Below, piece by piece: positions 5,969 through 25,159 of a stretch of 64,000 nt of DNA. The stretch lies in assembly GCF_029227855.1 (NCBI RefSeq), contig NZ_CP074356.1. One strand, given 5' to 3'. The position numbers and the translations under genes are program-made. How positions within the stretch are numbered: the stretch's first letter is position 1; every line of letters starts with the position of its first letter. The stretch comes from Escherichia coli. GTDB lineage: Bacteria; Pseudomonadota; Gammaproteobacteria; Enterobacterales; Enterobacteriaceae. The notes beneath the pieces were generated by a model that was not told the origin of the DNA, made no database searches, and worked only from the letters and a program-made list of their open reading frames with translations.

Positions 5969-6044
5969 TGGCTCCTCTGACTGGACTCGAACCAGTGACA
6001 TACGGATTAACAGTCCGCCGTTCTACCGACTGAACTACAGAGGA
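5969..6044 (-). tRNA. asnT: tRNA-Asn (anticodon GUU)
   Basis: Reverse complement reads TCCTCTGTAGTTCAGTCGGTAGAACGGCGGACTGTTAATCCGTATGTCACTGGTTCGAGTCCAGTCAGAGGAGCCA, 76 nt; K-12 order yeeJ-asnT-mtfA-serU. Confidence 0.9.
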
Positions 6045-6144
6045 ATCGTGTGAACGGGGCGCATATTACTTAGCGGTACCTTGTCTGTCAACACTAAATT
6101 TCATAAGTCATTTCAATTGGTTAATTAATCTGCAAAGTTGTTAA

Positions 6145-6942
6145 TTAATGAACATTCGTCGTCGAAAACGAGTCTGTATCATTAGCGTGGTGCAGTCTCT
6201 GCAAAGGATCTTGTTGATAAAATTGGCAGAAACGTTGCCACAATGAAGGGAAACGAGGAGCAAAAAGTTCTGGGGCGCTAAAGAAATATTCAGAAAGTAC
6301 GGCAAAACATTCAGCAGGATCACTGGCAGCATAAGCATCAATGCTCGCCGCATTCTCGCCAACCAATTCGATTTCTTCCTGAATGTTGTTCATTGCAGCA
6401 TGAAGATCGTATTCCCAGCCAGCAACCTCACGCAACGGAATAAAGGGAACTCCGCTGGCGCGATCGCCGTTACGGGTGTCCAGCTTATGAGCGACTTCAT
6501 GAATAATCAGGTTAAAACCAGAAGCATCAAAAGAATCTTGTATATCCAACCAGTTCAAAACGATAGGCCCTTGCTGCCAGCTCTGACCTGACTGAACAAT
6601 ACGTTGGTTATGCACCAGACCGATATCGTCTTCCCATTCATCATCGACCACAAATGGCGCAGGATAAATTAAGACTTCATGAAAACCATCCAGCCATTCC
6701 AGTCCTAACTCCAGAACGGGCAGGCAAAATAGAAGTGCTATCCGGCAGCTTCTTAATGAATCCAGTTCAAAGCCCTGTAAAGGAACAAGCCGCTTTTGCT
6801 GTAAAAAACGTTCGGCAAGAGTGACTAATTTGCTTTGTTCCTGTTCCGTCAGACACGTTAAAAGGGGGATCGATAGTGCTTCCTGCCAGGGAAGGGCAGT
6901 TTGATGTGCTGATTCTTGTACTTTCCAGGGCCACTTAATCAT
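6145..6942 (-). CDS. mtfA: Mlc titration factor MtfA (YeeI), 265 aa
   Basis: Track ORF 6145..6981 contains [23 protein letters not shown]...; start trimmed to the MIKWPWK methionine. Confidence 0.9.
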
Positions 6943-7035
6943 CGTTTTGCTCGCAAACTCGTCACTTGAACAAAATTGCACGGACAGGGACTGTTAAAAT
7001 GCCAAATTTCCTGGCATCATGGCAACCATCTGAAC

Positions 7036-7125
7036 GGAGAGATGCCGGAGCGGCTGAACGGACCGGTCTCGAAAACCGGAGTAGGGGCAACTCTACCGGG
7101 GGTTCAAATCCCCCTCTCTCCGCCA
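7036..7125 (+). tRNA. serU: tRNA-Ser (anticodon CGA); prophage attachment target
   Basis: GGAGAGATGCCGGAGCGGCTGAACGGACCGGTCTCGAAAACCGG...CCCCCTCTCTCCGCCA, 90 nt with long variable arm; its 3' 62 nt are repeated at 63384..63445. Confidence 0.9.
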
Positions 7126-11549: not shown

Positions 11550-11602
11550 GGGCGGCAGAGCAGTCACGGAGTAAAACTGATACCGCCAAACGTCACCAGA
11601 AA
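11550..11602 (-). ncRNA. dicF: DicF small regulatory RNA (53 nt) with 3' hairpin and U-tract
   Basis: Minus strand reads TTTCTGGTGACGTTTGGCGGTATCAGTTTTACTCCGTGACTGCTCTGCCGCCC followed by TTTTT; matches recalled DicF. Confidence 0.7.
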
Positions 11603-17144: not shown

Positions 17145-17401
17145 ATACAGCGAACTCCATTGGTTTAGTTGGATATTTATTGTGCTGGACAAAAACGGTT
17201 TGCGGGGAAATCTTAGTTAAGTAGAATGACTGCGGGTGCTTGAGGCTATCTGCCTCGGGCATGAACACCAACGGCAGATAGAGAAAAGCCCCAGGTAACA
17301 TTACGCGTCCTGCAAGACGTTTAACATTAATCTGAGGCCATATCTATGCGACACATAGAGATTAGCCTCTTACGGACCGAAAGGTCAAGGAGAAGCAGGC
17401 T

Positions 17402-17557
17402 ATGAAGCAGCAAAAGGCGATGTTAATCGCCCTGATCGTCATCTGTTTAACCGTCATAGTGACGGCACTGGTAACGAGGAAAGACCTCTGCGAGGTACGA
17501 ATCCGAACCGGCCAGACGGAGGTCGCTGTCTTCACAGTTTACGAACCTGAGGAGTAA
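17402..17557 (+). CDS. hokD: Hok/Gef-family type I toxin (51 aa), HokD/RelF-like
   Basis: MKQQKAMLIALIVICLTVIVTALVTRKDLCEVRIRTGQTEVAVFTVYEPEE; single TM helix plus conserved Cys pattern. Confidence 0.75.
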   Translation: MKQQKAMLIALIVICLTVIVTALVTRKDLCEVRIRTGQTEVAVFTVYEPEE

Positions 17558-18295: not shown

Positions 18296-19345
18296 GTGCG
18301 GGTATTACTTCGACCTGTTCTGGTACCGGAACTCGGGCTGGTGATCGTTAAGCCGGGCCGTGAATCCATGCCGGTATTCCACAATACCCGGTTACTGGTG
18401 GAGCCGGAACCGAAAAGCATGCGTAATCTGCCGTCCGGGGTCGTTCCTGCCGCTCGCCAGCCGCTGGTGGAAGACAAAACATTGCTGCCGTTTTTCAGTA
18501 ACGCACGGGTGATTCGTGCTGCTGGTGGTGCTGGTGCATTGTCTGACTGGCTGTTGCGCCATATTAAATCCTGCCAGTGGCCACACGGCGATTATCATCA
18601 CAGCGAAACCGTCATTCACCGTTATGGTACCGGCGCAATGGTGTTGTGCTGGCACTGCGACAACCAGCTGCGTGACCAGACATCCGAATCACTCGAGCAA
18701 GTTGCTCATCAAAACCTGTCAGCATGGATGATTGACGTCATCGGTCACGCAATAAGCGGTACGCAGGAGCGTGAATTATCTCTGGCTGAATTATCCTGGT
18801 GGGCGGTCCGCAATCAGGTGGCGGACGCGCTACCGGAAGCGGTATTACGTCGTTCGCTGGGGTTGCGTGCGGAAAAAATCCGCTCAATGTACCGTGAAAG
18901 CGACATCGTACCGGGAGAGCAGACCGCCACCAGCATACTGAAACAGCGCACAAAAAATCTTGCGCCGCTGCCTCACGCCCACCAGCAACAGAACCCACCA
19001 CAGGAAAAGACGGTGGTCAGCATTGCCGTTGATCCTGAGTCTCCGGAATCTTTCATGAAACGACCTAAACGTCGCCGCTGGGTTAACGAGAAATACACAC
19101 GCTGGGTGAAGACACAGCCGTGTGCGTGTTGTGGTAAGCCAGCCGACGATCCCCATCACCTGATTGGTCATGGTCAGGGCGGAATGGGGACAAAATCTCA
19201 CGATATTTTCACGCTACCGCTGTGTCGGGAGCATCACAACGAGCTTCATGCGGATCCGCTGGCGTTCGAAGAAAAGCATGGTTCTCAGGTTGATTTAATT
19301 TTTCGTTTTCTTGATCACGCCTTTGCAACTGGCGTGCTTGGGTAA
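18296..19345 (+). CDS. DUF968-family phage protein (YdfU-like), 349 aa
   Basis: GTG start with GGAGG RBS; C-terminal Cys/His cluster (CACCGKPADDPHHLIGHG...CREHHNELH); typical neighbour of rusA and Q. Confidence 0.75.
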   Translation: MRVLLRPVLVPELGLVIVKPGRESMPVFHNTRLLVEPEPKSMRNLPSGVVPAARQPLVEDKTLLPFFSNARVIRAAGGAGALSDWLLRHIKSCQWPHGDYHHSETVIHRYGTGAMVLCWHCDNQLRDQTSESLEQVAHQNLSAWMIDVIGHAISGTQERELSLAELSWWAVRNQVADALPEAVLRRSLGLRAEKIRSMYRESDIVPGEQTATSILKQRTKNLAPLPHAHQQQNPPQEKTVVSIAVDPESPESFMKRPKRRRWVNEKYTRWVKTQPCACCGKPADDPHHLIGHGQGGMGTKSHDIFTLPLCREHHNELHADPLAFEEKHGSQVDLIFRFLDHAFATGVLG

Positions 19346-19357
19346 AAGAGGTGACTG

Positions 19358-19732
19358 ATGCTCATAGATTTGGTTTTACCTTACCCGCCGACGGTGAACA
19401 CTTACTGGCGACGCCGTGGCAGCACATATTTTATCTCGGAGGAGGGAAAGCGTTATCGCCGTGCTGTGGCGCTTATTGTTCGCCAGCAGCGGCTGAAATT
19501 AAGCCTGTCCGGAAGGCTGGCGATAAAGGTGATTGCAGAGCCACAGGATAAGCGTCGTCGCGACCTGGACAATATCCTGAAAGCACCGCTGGATGCGCTG
19601 ACGCATGCGGGAGTGTTAATGGACGATGAGCAGTTTGATGAAATCAATATCGTTCGTGGTCAGCCAGTATCTGGTGGACGTCTGGGGGTGAAGATTTACC
19701 CCATAATGCATGAAGAGCAGGTCAAAAAATGA
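19358..19732 (+). CDS. rusA: Holliday-junction resolvase RusA
   Basis: 124 aa with ..NTYWRRRG..RRRDLDNILKAPLDALT.. RusA motifs. Confidence 0.85.
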   Translation: MLIDLVLPYPPTVNTYWRRRGSTYFISEEGKRYRRAVALIVRQQRLKLSLSGRLAIKVIAEPQDKRRRDLDNILKAPLDALTHAGVLMDDEQFDEINIVRGQPVSGGRLGVKIYPIMHEEQVKK

Positions 19733-20550
19733 AACTGGAAGATTTACCGAAATACTACTCCCCAAAATCCCCTTGCCTGACCGATGCATCGGCCTCAACG
19801 TCAAAAGATGCGCTGAGTATCACTGATGTGATGGCCGCGCAGGGCATGACACAGAATCGGGCTGAGATGGGGTTTTCTGCGTTCCTGGGGAAGATGGGCA
19901 TCAGTATGAATGACAGGGCGCGGGCAACAGAATTACTGGCAGATTATGCACTCAGTCGGTGCGATCGTGTGGCGGCGTTGAGAAAACTTCCGGCAGAAAT
20001 AAAACCGGTAGTGATGCGCATTATGGCTTCGTGCGCTTTTGAGGATTATGCCCGCAGCGCAGCGAGTAAAAAGCTGTGCCCTTGTTGCTATGGGGAAAAA
20101 TTTATTGAAAGCGTAGTTTTTACAAACAAGGTCCAGTATCCGGATGGTAAGCCGCCGGTATGGGCAAAGTGTACGAAAGGTGTGTATCCGTCTTACTGGG
20201 AAGAATGGAAAAAAGTCAGGGAGGTGGTAAAAGTTGCCTGTCCGGAGTGTGGCGGGAAGGGTGAGGTTTCCACCGCCTGTAAGGATTGCCGTGGGCGTGG
20301 TGTCGCCATTCATCGTGAAGAGTCGGTAAAACGTGGTATGCCTGTTATCAGAGACTGCCAGCGTTGTGGTGGTCGTGGCTATGAAAGGCTACCATCAACG
20401 GAGGCATTTAATGCTATATGCGAGGTGACAAACCAGATAACACGCGCGTCATGGGAAAAAACAGTTAAGAAATTCTATGATGCGCTGGTGACCCGGTTTG
20501 ATATTGAAGAAGCATGGGCTGAGCGGCAGTTAAAAAAGGTAACTAGGTAA
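19729..20550 (+). CDS. Late-gene antiterminator Q
   Basis: 273 aa with Cys-rich zinc-binding region (CPECGGKGEVSTACKDCRGRG..CQRCGGRG); immediately upstream of a promoter/terminator pair and the lysis genes. Confidence 0.8.
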   Translation: MKLEDLPKYYSPKSPCLTDASASTSKDALSITDVMAAQGMTQNRAEMGFSAFLGKMGISMNDRARATELLADYALSRCDRVAALRKLPAEIKPVVMRIMASCAFEDYARSAASKKLCPCCYGEKFIESVVFTNKVQYPDGKPPVWAKCTKGVYPSYWEEWKKVREVVKVACPECGGKGEVSTACKDCRGRGVAIHREESVKRGMPVIRDCQRCGGRGYERLPSTEAFNAICEVTNQITRASWEKTVKKFYDALVTRFDIEEAWAERQLKKVTR

Positions 20551-20555
20551 CAAGG

Positions 20556-20583
20556 TTGATTTTTCCGGAATCTGTGGTAAATT
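20556..20583 (+). promoter_or_regulatory. Putative late promoter (PR' analogue)
   Basis: TTGATT, 16-nt spacer, TAAATT directly downstream of Q. Confidence 0.35.
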
Positions 20584-20631
20584 CGTCATAACGATGGGCG
20601 TTTTATGCCTGACGTTAGAAGAGTTTCTACA

Positions 20632-20656
20632 ACCCGCCGCCGAGCGGGTTTTTTAT
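20632..20656 (+). terminator. Rho-independent terminator (tR' analogue, likely Q-antiterminated)
   Basis: ACCCGC-CGCCGA-GCGGGT hairpin followed by TTTTTT. Confidence 0.5.
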
Positions 20657-20692
20657 TGCGGAATTAATTACGGACCGTTATTATTCTGCTCC

Positions 20693-20769
20693 CGGTCCTT
20701 TAGCTCAGTGGTGAGAGCGAGCGACTCATAATCGCCAGGTCGCTGGTTCAAATCCAGCAAGGGCCACCA
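20693..20769 (+). tRNA. Phage-borne tRNA with CAU anticodon (Met or lysidine-Ile2 type)
   Basis: GGTCCTTTAGCTCAGTGGTGAGAGCGAGCGACTCATAATCGCC...GGGCCACCA; cloverleaf folds. Confidence 0.85.
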
Positions 20770-20874
20770 TCACAAACCGCCATTAGCTTATCAGGAAGAG
20801 CAGACGACACGATAACAGGGGTGTTGGTGCGGGGGGGGGGCGGGTCCCCGATGGCGGTCCATTATCGGTATTCA

Positions 20875-20951
20875 GCGTTGTTAGCTCAGCCGGACAGAGC
20901 AATTGCCTTCTAAGCAATCGGTCACTGGTTCGAATCCAGTACAGCGCGCCA
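20875..20951 (+). tRNA. Phage-borne tRNA-Arg (anticodon UCU)
   Basis: GCGTTGTTAGCTCAGCCGGACAGAGCAATTGCCTTCTAAGCAATCGGTCACTGGTTCGAATCCAGTACAGCGCGCCA. Confidence 0.85.
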
Positions 20952-21061
20952 TATTCATTCTTCCAGATTCCTTCCGGCAGAGCCTTATACTGGAATATAC
21001 CTGGCTCAGGATATTGTTGAAAACATTATATGTTTGTCAAAAATAAAAGTTCTGTTAAGTA

Positions 21062-21415
21062 TTGATTGAGTGTTTGTTATACGGTCTAATGGTTTTTTCA
21101 GTATTAAATATTTATCATTCATATGGTGTGGGTAGAGTGAATATTGATGAGGCGTCGGGGTGTTTCATCCTTAGGCAGCGTATTGATATAGTCAATGCAG
21201 CACGAGCAAAGGCCTTCAGCCGTTTGACAGTTTTGTTCTGTACTCCTGATCGTCTTTCGGGAAGAGACGTTATTCTTCTGAATAGTGATGCTATACAGAG
21301 GGTTTGCGATGAGTTCATGGTTGCTAATTCAGAATTATTTGCTCTTGTTCAGGAGTACAACAGAATAGCCAGGACCTGTGGTATGGATGAACTTCGGATT
21401 ACTCATCTGGGGTAG
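21062..21415 (+). CDS. Hypothetical protein in AT-rich moron region
   Basis: Track ORF only; start uncertain. Confidence 0.3.
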   Translation: MIECLLYGLMVFSVLNIYHSYGVGRVNIDEASGCFILRQRIDIVNAARAKAFSRLTVLFCTPDRLSGRDVILLNSDAIQRVCDEFMVANSELFALVQEYNRIARTCGMDELRITHLG

Positions 21416-21862
21416 ATACATATCTGGATTATCACCTGTTACGGTAAAAAGTGATTGCTTACTGTTTTTGTGAATGGCATTGCAGCAGCCGGATAATGTC
21501 AGTGCTGGCTGACGGTGTGCTGGTGGCGGGTGTGGTGGTTGTTGCTTTCCCGTTGCTGAAAAAGAAAACGCCAGACTGTTAGCCGGGTATCAGTTAGCGG
21601 GAGAAATTTTTAAATACTTCACAATTCAGGCGGTTGACTGTTGTCTGGTTTGCGGGGAGTTTGTTAAAAGAAACTGGCATGGTGAATCCCCCTGTGCGGA
21701 GGGGCAATCAGCGAGTAGGTATATGGGATAATCGCGGATTCAGGTGCTGGTACTGAATTCACCGGGAGGCACCCGGCACCATGCAATGGCACATAGCGCC
21801 ACTCTCCAGCCCCTCTCCGGAGGGGCTGTTTATATTGATTTTGTCAGATGTGAGTAAACTCC

Positions 21863-22198
21863 TTATGGACTTTGTTGTTTTAGTCCATAAGGACATATTT
21901 GCAGAGTGCAACGGTTATTAAAGCATTCATTCAATACGTTATCTGTATTTGTAGGGCATTCCTGGCTGTTTTTGATTAAATTCCAGAATGTTTTATTGAA
22001 TGGTACTACGTTGTAAATGGTTACAGGTAGCACTTTGTTATTGAGCATGATACCTGTGTGAGTCAGTGTAAATATACTTTCAGGAGGTAAGAAAGCATCC
22101 GATTGATACCAGATTATTAATTTTACTTTACTCCATATGACTGAAAAAGATATTCCGCATGATGGCTGGATAACTGTATCAATCACAATCCACTTCAT
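21863..22198 (-). CDS. Hypothetical protein in AT-rich moron region
   Basis: Track ORF only. Confidence 0.3.
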
Positions 22199-22458
22199 TT
22201 AGCTTCCTTGTTTATGCCTTGCTGGTGATGTTCTGAAAAGTATAAATGATATTTTTGAATGTAAACCATAGCGCAGAATTATTTTTCTGATGTTGTTTAT
22301 TGTTTATTTAAATGCAGGGTGGTTTATATCTCGTCTTGTAGTTTATCCATGCATATCTGCTTGATAATCAGGTTTTTATTTAAGGTATGGTTTTGTGTTT
22401 TTTCTGTATTACATATCCGGTATTTTAAAGAATTATTTTTCAGATAGTGGAAAGAACC

Positions 22459-22647
22459 ATGGCATTTAAACACTATGATGTTGTCAGGGCGGCGCCGCCG
22501 TCAGATCTTGCGGAAAAGCTGACACATAAACTGAAAGAGGGCGGGCAGCCGTTTGGTAGTCCGGTGGCCATAACCCCTTATACCCTGATGCAGGCGATTG
22601 CAGCAGAAGGTGATGTGGTGGTCAGTGGTGCAACTGAGCCGGAGTGA
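22459..22647 (+). CDS. Small conserved prophage protein upstream of lysis genes (DUF1737-like)
   Basis: MAFKHYDVVRAAPPSDLAEKLTHKLKEGGQPFGSPVAI...; family assignment recalled. Confidence 0.5.
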   Translation: MAFKHYDVVRAAPPSDLAEKLTHKLKEGGQPFGSPVAITPYTLMQAIAAEGDVVVSGATEPE

Positions 22648-22954: not shown

Positions 22955-23170
22955 ATGGACCAGATGGAAAAAATCACAACAGGTGTGTCATACACCACGT
23001 CAGCGGTGGGAACGGGCTACTGGTTCCTGCAGTTGCTGGACAGGGTTTCCCCGTCTCAGTGGGCGGCAATAGGCGTGCTGGGGAGTCTGCTGTTTGGGCT
23101 GCTGACATATCTGACTAACCTGTATTTCAAAATCAGAGAGGACCGTCGTAAGGCGGCACGGGGAGAGTAA
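22955..23170 (+). CDS. S: Holin, phage-21 S (pinholin)-like, 71 aa
   Basis: [71 protein letters not shown]; two TM segments, charged C-terminus. Confidence 0.8.
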
Positions 23171-23174
23171 TTCA

Positions 23175-23519
23175 ATGACTCAAAACTATGAACTGATTGT
23201 GAAAGGGATCCGCAATTTTGAGAATAAAGTTACGGTAACTTTAGCATTACAGGACAAAGAACGCTTTGACGGTGAAATTTTTGACCTGGACATCTCGCTG
23301 GACCGTGTTGAAGGTGCTGCGCTGGAGTTTTATGAGGCAGCGGCCAGAAGGAGCATCAGACAGGTCTTCCTGGATGTCGCTGCCGGGTTATGTGAAGGGG
23401 ATGAGCAGTCGCCGGAAAAGCGCCCCGTAATTTTAGAGGCGCAGAATGTATGGATAACCTACAAAGGAAAGCTACCGGGAAGGATTACTGGTTCCCTGAA
23501 GACTCCGCCGAAATGGTAG
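23175..23519 (+). CDS. Hypothetical protein between holin and endolysin
   Basis: 114-aa ORF starting 5 nt after the holin stop. Confidence 0.5.
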   Translation: MTQNYELIVKGIRNFENKVTVTLALQDKERFDGEIFDLDISLDRVEGAALEFYEAAARRSIRQVFLDVAAGLCEGDEQSPEKRPVILEAQNVWITYKGKLPGRITGSLKTPPKW

Positions 23520-23862: not shown

Positions 23863-24396
23863 ATGAACGCAAAAATCAAATACGGCCTGTCAGCTGCAGT
23901 TCTGGCGCTGATTGGAGCAGGCGCATCAGCTCCTCAGATACTTGACCAGTTTCTGGATGAAAAAGAGGGTAACCACACTACGGCATACCGCGATGGTTCC
24001 GGCAACTGGACCATCTGTCGGGGGGCCACGATGGTGGATGGAAAACCCGTTTTTCCCGGTATGAAACTGTCGAAGGAAAAATGCGACCAGGTCAACGCCA
24101 TTGAGCGTGATAAGGCGCTGGCATGGGTGGAGAAAAACATCAAAGTGCCATTGAGCGAACCCCAGAAAGCGGGGATCGCGTCATTCTGTCCGTACAACAT
24201 TGGTCCCGGTAAGTGTTTCCCGTCGACGTTTTATAAACGAATTAATGCAGGTGATCGCAGGGGAGCGTGTGAGGCGATTCGCTGGTGGATTAAGGACGGT
24301 GGCAGAGACTGCCGTATTCGTTCAAACAACTGCTACGGTCAGGTATCCCGTCGTGACCAGGAGAGCGCGCTGGCGTGCTGGGGTATCGACAGATAA
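23863..24396 (+). CDS. R: SAR endolysin (phage lysozyme, R21/P1 Lyz type)
   Basis: N-terminal signal-anchor (LSAAVLALIGAGASA) and E..D..T catalytic spacing (EGNHTTAYRDGSGNWT). Confidence 0.9.
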   Translation: MNAKIKYGLSAAVLALIGAGASAPQILDQFLDEKEGNHTTAYRDGSGNWTICRGATMVDGKPVFPGMKLSKEKCDQVNAIERDKALAWVEKNIKVPLSEPQKAGIASFCPYNIGPGKCFPSTFYKRINAGDRRGACEAIRWWIKDGGRDCRIRSNNCYGQVSRRDQESALACWGIDR

Positions 24397-24694: not shown

Positions 24695-25159
24695 ATGAAC
24701 CGCGTACTGTGCGTGGTCATCATTGCCCTGCTGGTGGCCTGTGGTGCGCTTAGTCTGGGGCTGAATCATTACCGTGATAACGCCATTACCTACAAAGCCC
24801 AGCGCGACAAAAATGTCAGAGAACTGAAGCTGGCGAACGCGGCAATTACTGACATGCAGATGCGTCAGCGTGATGTTGCTGCGCTCGATGCAAAATACAC
24901 GAAGGAGTTAGCTGATGCGAAAGCTGAAAATGATGCTCTGCGTGATGATGTTGCCGCTGGTCGTCGTCGGTTGCACATCAAAGCAGTCTGTCAGTCAGTG
25001 CGTGAAGCCACCACCGCCTCCGGCGTGGATAATGCAGCCTCCCCCCGATTGGCAGACACCGCTGAACGGGATTATTTCACCCTCAGAGCGCGACTGATAA
25101 TAATGCAAAAACAACTTGAAGGGGCACAGCTATACATTCGAGAGCAATGCCTCAGATAA
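24695..25159 (+). CDS. Rz: Spanin inner-membrane subunit Rz
   Basis: N-terminal TM helix and coiled-coil; Rz1 embedded in +1 frame. Confidence 0.85.
24915..25097 (+). CDS. Rz1: Spanin outer-membrane lipoprotein Rz1 (embedded in Rz)
   Basis: Lipobox LVVVGC followed by proline-rich segment ([15 protein letters not shown]). Confidence 0.8.

Follow-up and report, generated by a model that had tools for sequence, protein, structure and literature searches.

The spacer between two tRNA genes downstream of the Q gene in the 64-kb window (the whole stretch of Escherichia coli DNA analyzed in this study) is derived from a tRNA gene, and it probably represents a dead gene flanked by two live tRNA genes, within the tRNA island of the late operon in a Qin-like lambdoid prophage. 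The relic is an ordinary, widespread, and unannotated pseudo-tRNA with a slippage-prone scar, and it is most likely without function.

Across the window, ARAGORN called four tRNAs, two of them directly after the Q gene. Because the calls end at 20769 and resume at 20875 with none between, the spacer is exactly 20770-20874, and a search with Rfam RF00005 at E<=10 likewise returned no match between the two island tRNAs. ARAGORN and Rfam therefore agree on the two-tRNA island after Q, and the spacer bounds given in the first-pass annotation are correct. The elements of the island and its upstream region are as follows:

19729-20550 (+): Q-type late antiterminator gene, 273 aa (Pfam PF03589 Antiterm, E=5.8e-54)
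20556-20583 (+): putative late promoter pR', TTGATT, 16-nt spacer, TGgTAAATT (read by eye)
20631-20657 (+): strong intrinsic terminator, tR'-like (terminator scan: 7 bp in the stem, 5 of them GC, then TTTTTTATT)
20694-20769 (+): tRNA-Ile2, anticodon CAT, ileZ-like (ARAGORN; Rfam RF00005, 69.4 bits)
20777-20861 (+): tRNA-derived relic in the argN slot, 85 nt (alignments to relatives and fold)
20831-20840 (+): G10 homopolymer replacing T54-T55 of the relic T loop (sequence read; length hypervariable)
20875-20951 (+): tRNA-Arg, anticodon TCT, argO-like (ARAGORN; Rfam RF00005, 68.0 bits)

By alignment, the window's tRNA-Ile2 and tRNA-Arg are homologous to ileZ and argO of Stx phages, respectively. 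Among complete genomes, the tRNA island matched most closely that of E. coli WP8-S18-ESBL-07 (L116, 1265-3231), in which the gene identical to the window's tRNA-Ile2 carries the PGAP label tRNA-Ile and the identical Q protein is named 'antitermination protein'; in this genome the IS21-family element ISEc62 interrupts the DUF968 gene, which is whole in the window (18296-19345), so the window derives from another strain or lineage. At position 20696, the window's ileZ-like tRNA has a C3-to-T change that leaves a U-G wobble as the third acceptor pair, with the score still at 69 bits, and this ileZ allele was seen in 8-10 of approximately 125 related loci.

The Q gene ends 143 nt before the tRNA island. 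The putative pR' agrees with the consensus at 8/12 positions, which is under the promoter-scan threshold and hence went unreported by the scan; its position between Q and the terminator suggests that it serves as the late promoter. The terminator at 20631-20657 would be read through by Q-modified polymerase, and the order of Q, pR', and tR' in the window is the usual lambdoid late-operon arrangement. Weak Rfam matches to Trp_leader (25.5 bits) and isrK (16 bits) are driven by the hairpin of this terminator only. The predicted leader from pR' to tR' (20584-20657, +) is ~70 nt long and resembles the lambda 6S RNA and the StxS sRNA of Stx phages. In Stx phages, Q-modified polymerase from pR' reads through tR' and the tRNA island; by analogy, late transcription in the window would proceed, Q-antiterminated, from pR' through tR' and the island into the accessory and lysis genes.

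The prophage was classed as Qin-like because the DicF sRNA (11550-11601, -, 76.7 bits), the sok antitoxin RNA (17234-17404, +, 100.8 bits), rrrQ, ynfO, and DUF968 are present. Upstream of the prophage genes, a tRNA-Asn(GTT) at 5969-6044 (-) lies near a tRNA-Ser(CGA) at 7036-7125 (+), and this pair (5969-7125) may mark the prophage integration site.

Within the spacer, the relic retains a 7-bp acceptor stem, formed by CCGCCAT (20777-20783) with ATGGCGG (20851-20857) and followed by a discriminator T and CCA, as well as a D arm that reads GCTT-ATCAGGAA-GAGC. In the minimum-free-energy fold, the 'anticodon' arm consists of a 6-bp stem with a 10-nt loop (GAUAACAGGG), leaving neither a 7-nt anticodon loop with U33 nor a readable anticodon. 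The T stem is a 5-bp G-C stem whose loop takes in most of the G run, reading as six of the ten Gs followed by CGGGT where relatives show TTCGAGT, with T54, T55, and A58 all replaced. Compared with a canonical tRNA, the relic therefore has the acceptor stem, discriminator, and CCA but lacks the model score (the RF00005 gathering score being 29 bits), the anticodon loop, and the T loop; ARAGORN made no call on it in the default, -ps, or -i modes, pseudogene and intron options included.

The spacer folds into a cloverleaf-like structure, yet its minimum free energy is no better than that of shuffles (z=-0.6). Thermodynamic support for a structured RNA was accordingly discarded, and the tRNA ancestry of the spacer rests on homology. 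No plus-strand ORF of at least 40 aa was found spanning 20777-20861. A minus-strand 44-aa ORF over the G tract (20783-20917) was considered spurious, as it overlaps argO and is without family support, and a candidate promoter inside the relic (TTATCA, 17-nt spacer, GATAAC) was rejected, with 8/12 positions, a C at the last -10 position, and no report from the scan.

A megablast search against phage genomes aligned the whole island, including the spacer, to the ileZ-argN-argO cluster at ~87% identity (E=4e-94), which precedes stx2 in Stx phages and is annotated in Stx2a_WGPS8 (AP012540). The spacer aligns with argN, a tRNA-Arg with anticodon TCG, and the relic, like argN, lies between ileZ and argO downstream of Q. 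Stx phages carry three tRNAs in this island; the earlier statement that related phages have a third tRNA at the slot was borne out by the alignment to prophage tRNA clusters, which places argN there. The relic and argN have in common the acceptor strands, D stem, T stem, discriminator with CCA, and short flanking spacers, and they differ in the D loop, the anticodon arm, and the T loop (TTCGAGT vs. G10CGGGT). The argN anticodon arm (TCAGC-CTTCGAA-GCTGG) is missing from the relic, 25/53 positions differ across the 5' and central part, and the overall identity of the relic to argN is 65%. A literature search on ileZ, argN, and argO returned nothing relevant.

The altered anticodon arm of the window relic is shared by phages phiP27 and mEp460, of which phiP27 has a canonical T loop and mEp460 has G5CGGGT; two tRNAs are annotated in phage phiP27. 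When the phiP27-type island of E. coli 08-00022 (L117) was compared with the argN island of Stx2a_WGPS8, the 40 nt upstream, ileZ, the T arm, and the 3' acceptor strand were identical and argO differed at 1/77 positions, whereas the middle gene differed at 24/53 positions in its 5' and central part. This pattern indicates patch replacement rather than gradual decay. The first-pass description of the spacer as a decayed tRNA thus holds for its tRNA derivation and its place in the argN slot of Stx phages, but not for its middle, where a patch was replaced. Additionally, the phiP27-type element is 87% identical to the tRNA-like sequence in K-12 xtpA versus 78% to argN and has the same first 33 nt as the former, placing the window's variant arm in an xtpA-type tRNA-like lineage.

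In structure, the window's form probably goes back directly to the phiP27-type element. The loop of the latter is 11 nt long as opposed to 10 nt in the window relic, and the stem changes relative to phiP27 keep or strengthen pairing (C13-to-T giving U-G, and a T-to-C giving G-C), with all stems paired. Despite PGAP and ARAGORN calls on the phiP27-type element, the Rfam tRNA model at E<=10 gave no match to it. Between G5-type and phiP27-type islands, the relic outside the T arm differs at 1/64 positions and the tRNAs at 1/76 and 2/77, as compared with 29/94 for spacers and flanks; in spacer 2, 3/13 positions differ even between otherwise identical islands.

A series of three steps, its order drawn from a handful of allele types, could account for the window's form. 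The D-loop/anticodon-arm segment of the gene in the argN slot would have been replaced by an xtpA-related one, yielding the phiP27-type 'tRNA-OTHER' with its 11-nt loop; the T loop would then have changed from TTCGAGT to GGCGGGT, fusing with the Gs of the T stem into a G6 run; and this run would have slipped repeatedly to lengths of 4 to 13, with 10 in the window. The middle gene, in the slot of tRNA-Arg (UCG), would no longer be able to decode.

The xtpA kinship came to light in a scan for the variant D-arm motif in one genome per species, which unexpectedly matched an isolated 81-nt element in E. coli, in E. albertii, and in one more Escherichia species. In K-12 MG1655, this element is located at ~345,334-345,414 (L128, 4335-4415), between yahL and yahM, inside the leaderless ORF xtpA (b4845) and just before yahM. 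A regulatory effect on GcvB has been reported for XtpA. The xtpA locus is present in 5168/5426 complete E. coli genomes. Across 6 Escherichia loci (E. coli, E. albertii, Escherichia sp. E1V33, and a MAG included), the flanks are only 85-90% identical but the 81 nt do not vary. ARAGORN calls the element an odd tRNA-Ser(gga) with the anticodon at position 38, the Rfam tRNA model at E<=10 gave no match to it, and PGAP shows no RNA feature on it among the matches listed or in two records inspected. Descent of the xtpA locus from a complete ileZ-X-argO island by decay was rejected, as in local alignments its flanks match ileZ and argO no better than shuffles do (z=-0.1 and 0.3). Since the exact xtpA central segment has 0 matches in IMG/VR phage contigs, the modern chromosomal xtpA copy is a relative and not the direct donor, and the sequence comparisons suggest a common origin for the xtpA element and the middle-slot genes of prophages. 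RegulonDB v12 (PMC10767902) cites Muto et al. (2022, J Biochem 171:459) for the xtpA tRNA-like sequence.

Further elements in or adjacent to the middle slot were detected by a gapped pattern scan of viral contigs and by distant BLAST matches against phages. These elements share the acceptor CCGCCAY/RTGGCGG and the D and T arms, and their 'anticodon' loops differ between members:

L161, 1194-1271 (IMG/VR contig): 6-nt-loop element, 'tRNA-???' (ARAGORN)
L163, 4714-4787 (IMG/VR contig): 6-nt-loop element, 'tRNA-???' (ARAGORN)
L164, 2579-2655 (E. coli phage PhiR47_1): element with a 7-nt CCTTTAA loop without U33
L166, 380-456 (E. coli phage 689R5): element with a 7-nt CCTTTAA loop without U33
L165, 2502-2576 (Yersinia phage YeP1): 'tRNA-Pseudo-TTG'

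In L161 and L163, an ileZ-like tRNA immediately precedes the element, which is followed by tRNA-Arg or by tRNA-Thr and tRNA-Gly, and L163 shows a compensatory acceptor change (CCGCCAC/GTGGCGG). The CCTTTAA-loop elements are tRNA-Lys to some annotators and skipped by others, and the YeP1 element lies upstream of a tRNA-Met(CAT), not after it. All of these elements keep the xCAAC/GTTGx stem and a TTCGAGN T loop; within the family, loops are 6, 7, or 11 nt long, and the acceptor, D, and T arms are kept across Escherichia and Yersinia phages. In 10 family representatives, pairing in the acceptor and T stems reaches 98%, a single pair shows a compensatory change (U7:A to C7:G), and covariation in these few and similar sequences is within shuffle controls. 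The wider family may represent a tRNA body kept for a non-decoding role, a reading that is suggestive only.

The ten consecutive Gs at 20831-20840, already reported in the first-pass annotation, are read directly in the sequence and constitute the sole homopolymer longer than 8 nt in the window, for which ~0.1 G/C runs of at least 10 are expected under an iid model. Within 90 IMG/VR loci, the run lengths were G4 (2 loci), G5 (58), G6 (22), G9 (3), G10 (3), G11 (1), and G13 (1), and complete genomes contribute the further lengths G8 and G12. Because long runs sit on at least three haplotype backgrounds and lengths range from 4 to 13, slippage of the tract is recurrent, which agrees with its initial characterization as slippage-prone. 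This variation gives a relic 'T loop' of ~5 to 14 nt, and the commonest length, G5, is short and stable. The G10 allele recurs in nine other complete genomes, each 100% identical to the window across 258 nt that contain the tract, which shows that the long form is real; the count in this assembly may be off by one in either direction.

It is quite unlikely that the exact length of 10 is a sequencing or assembly error within a tract that is itself real. Homopolymer miscounts are common in long-read assemblies, and near-identical complete genomes give 9, 10, 11, and 12 Gs at the tract; however, G10 recurs in two IMG/VR contigs as well as in the nine agreeing complete genomes, and the gap between G5/G6 and G9-13 is too wide for miscounting. 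The real and recurrent polymorphism on several haplotypes, along with the unusual nature of a G10 tract for the window, would also fit a contingency (phase-variation) locus whose length switches, for example, argO or downstream late genes. This is highly improbable, as no credible ORF extends over the tract (the sole overlap being the 44-aa minus-strand ORF that also covers argO), the promoter scan places it outside any promoter spacer, it lies within the hairpin loop of a non-coding relic, and no U-run follows it, hence no terminator. Most copies also hold the short G5, and Q-modified polymerase passes pauses and terminators. The best explanation of the G10 tract is a neutral mutational hotspot rather than a switch.

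A further reading, in which the relic is not a pseudogene but a functional tRNA-like RNA of an anticodon-less, xtpA-related family with a dispensable T loop, is unlikely. Possible roles for such an RNA include an RNase P/RNase E processing mark for the polycistronic precursor, a tRNA-nuclease decoy, or a regulatory RNA. The relic keeps all four stems, the discriminator, and CCA, it is widespread, and outside the T arm it is as conserved as a tRNA although the spacers diverge; additionally, the wider family keeps its three arms and the xCAAC/GTTGx stem with one compensatory acceptor pair, and the chromosomal xtpA element is invariant between diverged flanks. However, the T loop TTCGAGN is invariant in argN, the phiP27 type, xtpA, PhiR47_1, 689R5, YeP1, L161, and L163 and is lost only in the G-run type, where the loop also drifts in size. 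Across 125 G-run loci, the relic shows three different acceptor-stem breaks and a U8-to-G change, none of them compensated, and the 16 relic alleles (few and similar sequences) hold no compensatory pair, with covariation within shuffle controls. Beside the relic, argO provides a positive control for selection on structure, since ~20/122 copies, of EDL933 type, carry a compensated T-stem change (C51G/G65C, window positions 20925 and 20939) together with A60C. Truncation and insertion are tolerated in the relic, which is cut off after GTTGTTG with argO lost in four viral contigs (L024, L025, L029, and L094) and carries IS421 in its T arm in E. coli STS73-1-E (L122, 1501-1640). Hitch-hiking with ileZ and argO explains why the relic is so common, as a relic wedged between two selected tRNAs would persist by riding along. 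Selection on the tRNA body could underlie the conservation outside the T arm, as could recent pseudogenization combined with mosaic, non-clocklike spacers, for which reason the functional reading retains its small share of the probability. In its broadest form, the middle slot of Q-downstream islands in lambdoid phages would house an anticodon-less tRNA-like RNA family with a non-decoding function, in which the window's G-run form is still active and its T-loop length is free or tuning; this is improbable. A dead tRNA-derived gene is therefore the preferred interpretation of the spacer.

The tRNA island is present in 3060/5426 complete E. coli genomes, and the variant middle element in 1859/5426, at 2328 places, with EDL933 among the carriers. 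The phiP27 form makes up ~60 of the variant-element records, as estimated from the 80-90% identity band, and the rest are of the G-run form, on which PGAP carries no annotation among the complete-genome matches listed. The two-tRNA-plus-relic layout is thus not peculiar to this prophage; roughly a third of the complete E. coli genomes have it. In the 11 neighboring ORFs (1599 codons), ATA, AGA, AGG, and CGA occur at 14.4, 8.8, 8.1, and 5.0 per 1000, respectively. General E. coli usage is ~4 per 1000 for ATA, ~2 for AGA, and ~1 for AGG; relative to this baseline, the three codons are enriched several-fold in the prophage ORFs. The two intact tRNAs would supply decoders for ATA and AGA/AGG to neighboring prophage genes, and the enrichment of these codons as compared with CGA suggests why ileZ and argO were kept while a CGA/CGG decoder was dispensable.

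Downstream of the island, the reported lack of toxin genes between Q and the lysis genes was confirmed, as tblastn with Stx2A and Stx2B on the window gave nothing better than E=1.6 and no toxin families were found in the Pfam and NCBIfam searches. In place of the 1.7 kb of exclusively hypothetical ORFs described initially, the 1.9 kb preceding the holin carries a DUF3927 gene, an sRNA, an IraM-family gene, and a DUF1737 ORF ahead of the lysis cassette:

21451-21582 (+): DUF3927 small protein gene (Pfam PF13064, E=1.7e-27; PGAP in WP8-S18-ESBL-07)
21648-21837 (+): STnc100-family prophage sRNA (Rfam RF02076, 132.4 bits vs. a gathering score of 47)
21863-22198 (-): IraM-family anti-adaptor gene, 111 aa (NCBIfam NF007393, 161.4 bits vs. 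a cutoff of 121)
22447-22647 (+): DUF1737 ORF, partial according to PGAP (Pfam PF08410, E=4.3e-14)
22955-23170 (+): class II holin, start of the lysis cassette (Pfam PF04971, E=3.7e-32; PGAP in WP8-S18-ESBL-07)
23175-23519 (+): DUF1327, lysis cassette (Pfam including PF07041 for the rest of the cassette; PGAP in WP8-S18-ESBL-07)
23863-24396 (+): lysozyme, lysis cassette (Pfam; PGAP in WP8-S18-ESBL-07)
24695-25159 (+): Rz, lysis cassette (Pfam; PGAP in WP8-S18-ESBL-07)

The description of this region as AT-rich applies in part, with 33-39% GC at ~20850-21300 and 21900-22500 but 44-49% between. STnc100 is a known prophage sRNA family (bioRxiv 10.64898/2026.05.13.724894), and the terminator scan placed the sRNA's own terminator at 21807-21828. 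The IraM-family gene, named 'anti-adapter protein IraM' by PGAP in WP8-S18-ESBL-07, lies in a patch of 33-35% GC and has 5 ATA codons in 111; this regulatory accessory gene occupies the position of stx in Stx phages.

As a pseudogene, the relic is of little biological weight. It is, however, carried without annotation by approximately a third of the complete E. coli genomes, and its G tract repeatedly gives rise to miscalled homopolymers and to apparent indels between prophages that are otherwise identical. The loci described here also form a decay series for a phage tRNA, from argN through the phiP27 'tRNA-OTHER' and the G-run relic to truncated or IS-disrupted forms; in summary, the flanking tRNAs reading ATA and AGA/AGG are kept throughout this series. 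The main wider point is the kinship of the relic with the xtpA tRNA-like sequence and with the middle-slot elements of lambdoid phages that vary in their anticodon loops. If the wider family were functional, it would constitute a new class of phage tRNA-like RNA.

Among known systems, the contingency loci of Neisseria, Haemophilus, and Campylobacter resemble the window in having a G run of at least 8 that varies between strains, whereas the window's tract lies outside an ORF or promoter spacer and has no evident switchable product. The Stx-phage cluster of the 933W type occupies the same place as the window's island, with Q, pR', and tR' ahead of it and the accessory and lysis genes behind, and its ileZ and argO are nearly identical to those of the window (0-1 differences). 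In contrast to this cluster, the window's middle gene has no UCG anticodon and shows a 10-nt loop, another D loop, and a destroyed T loop, the island is not followed by stx, and the Q protein is of a different type (PF03589, 273 aa).

The phiP27-type element shares the slot of the window relic, and its D-loop/anticodon-arm segment shows 1-2 differences in 53 nt. It keeps the canonical T arm CGGGG TTCGAGT CCTCG where the window copy shows G10CGGGT, and at 81 nt it is annotated by PGAP as 'tRNA-OTHER' in E. coli 08-00022 and called by ARAGORN when a 4-nt 'intron' is allowed, unlike the window copy, which is called by neither PGAP, ARAGORN, nor Rfam. The xtpA element is chromosomal and lies inside an ORF, while the window relic belongs to a prophage tRNA island with no ORF over it; the xCAAC/GTTGx stem of the former closes a loop of 6 nt and its T loop is canonical (TTCGAGG), as opposed to the 10-nt loop and G-run T loop of the latter. 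The first 33 nt of xtpA are nevertheless identical to those of the phiP27-type element and match the window relic at 32/33 positions (the exception being C13-to-T), covering the 5' acceptor strand, the D arm with its ATCAGGAA loop, and AGACGACA, and the two elements further share a related GTTGT stem strand, the T stem, the 3' acceptor strand, and TCCA.
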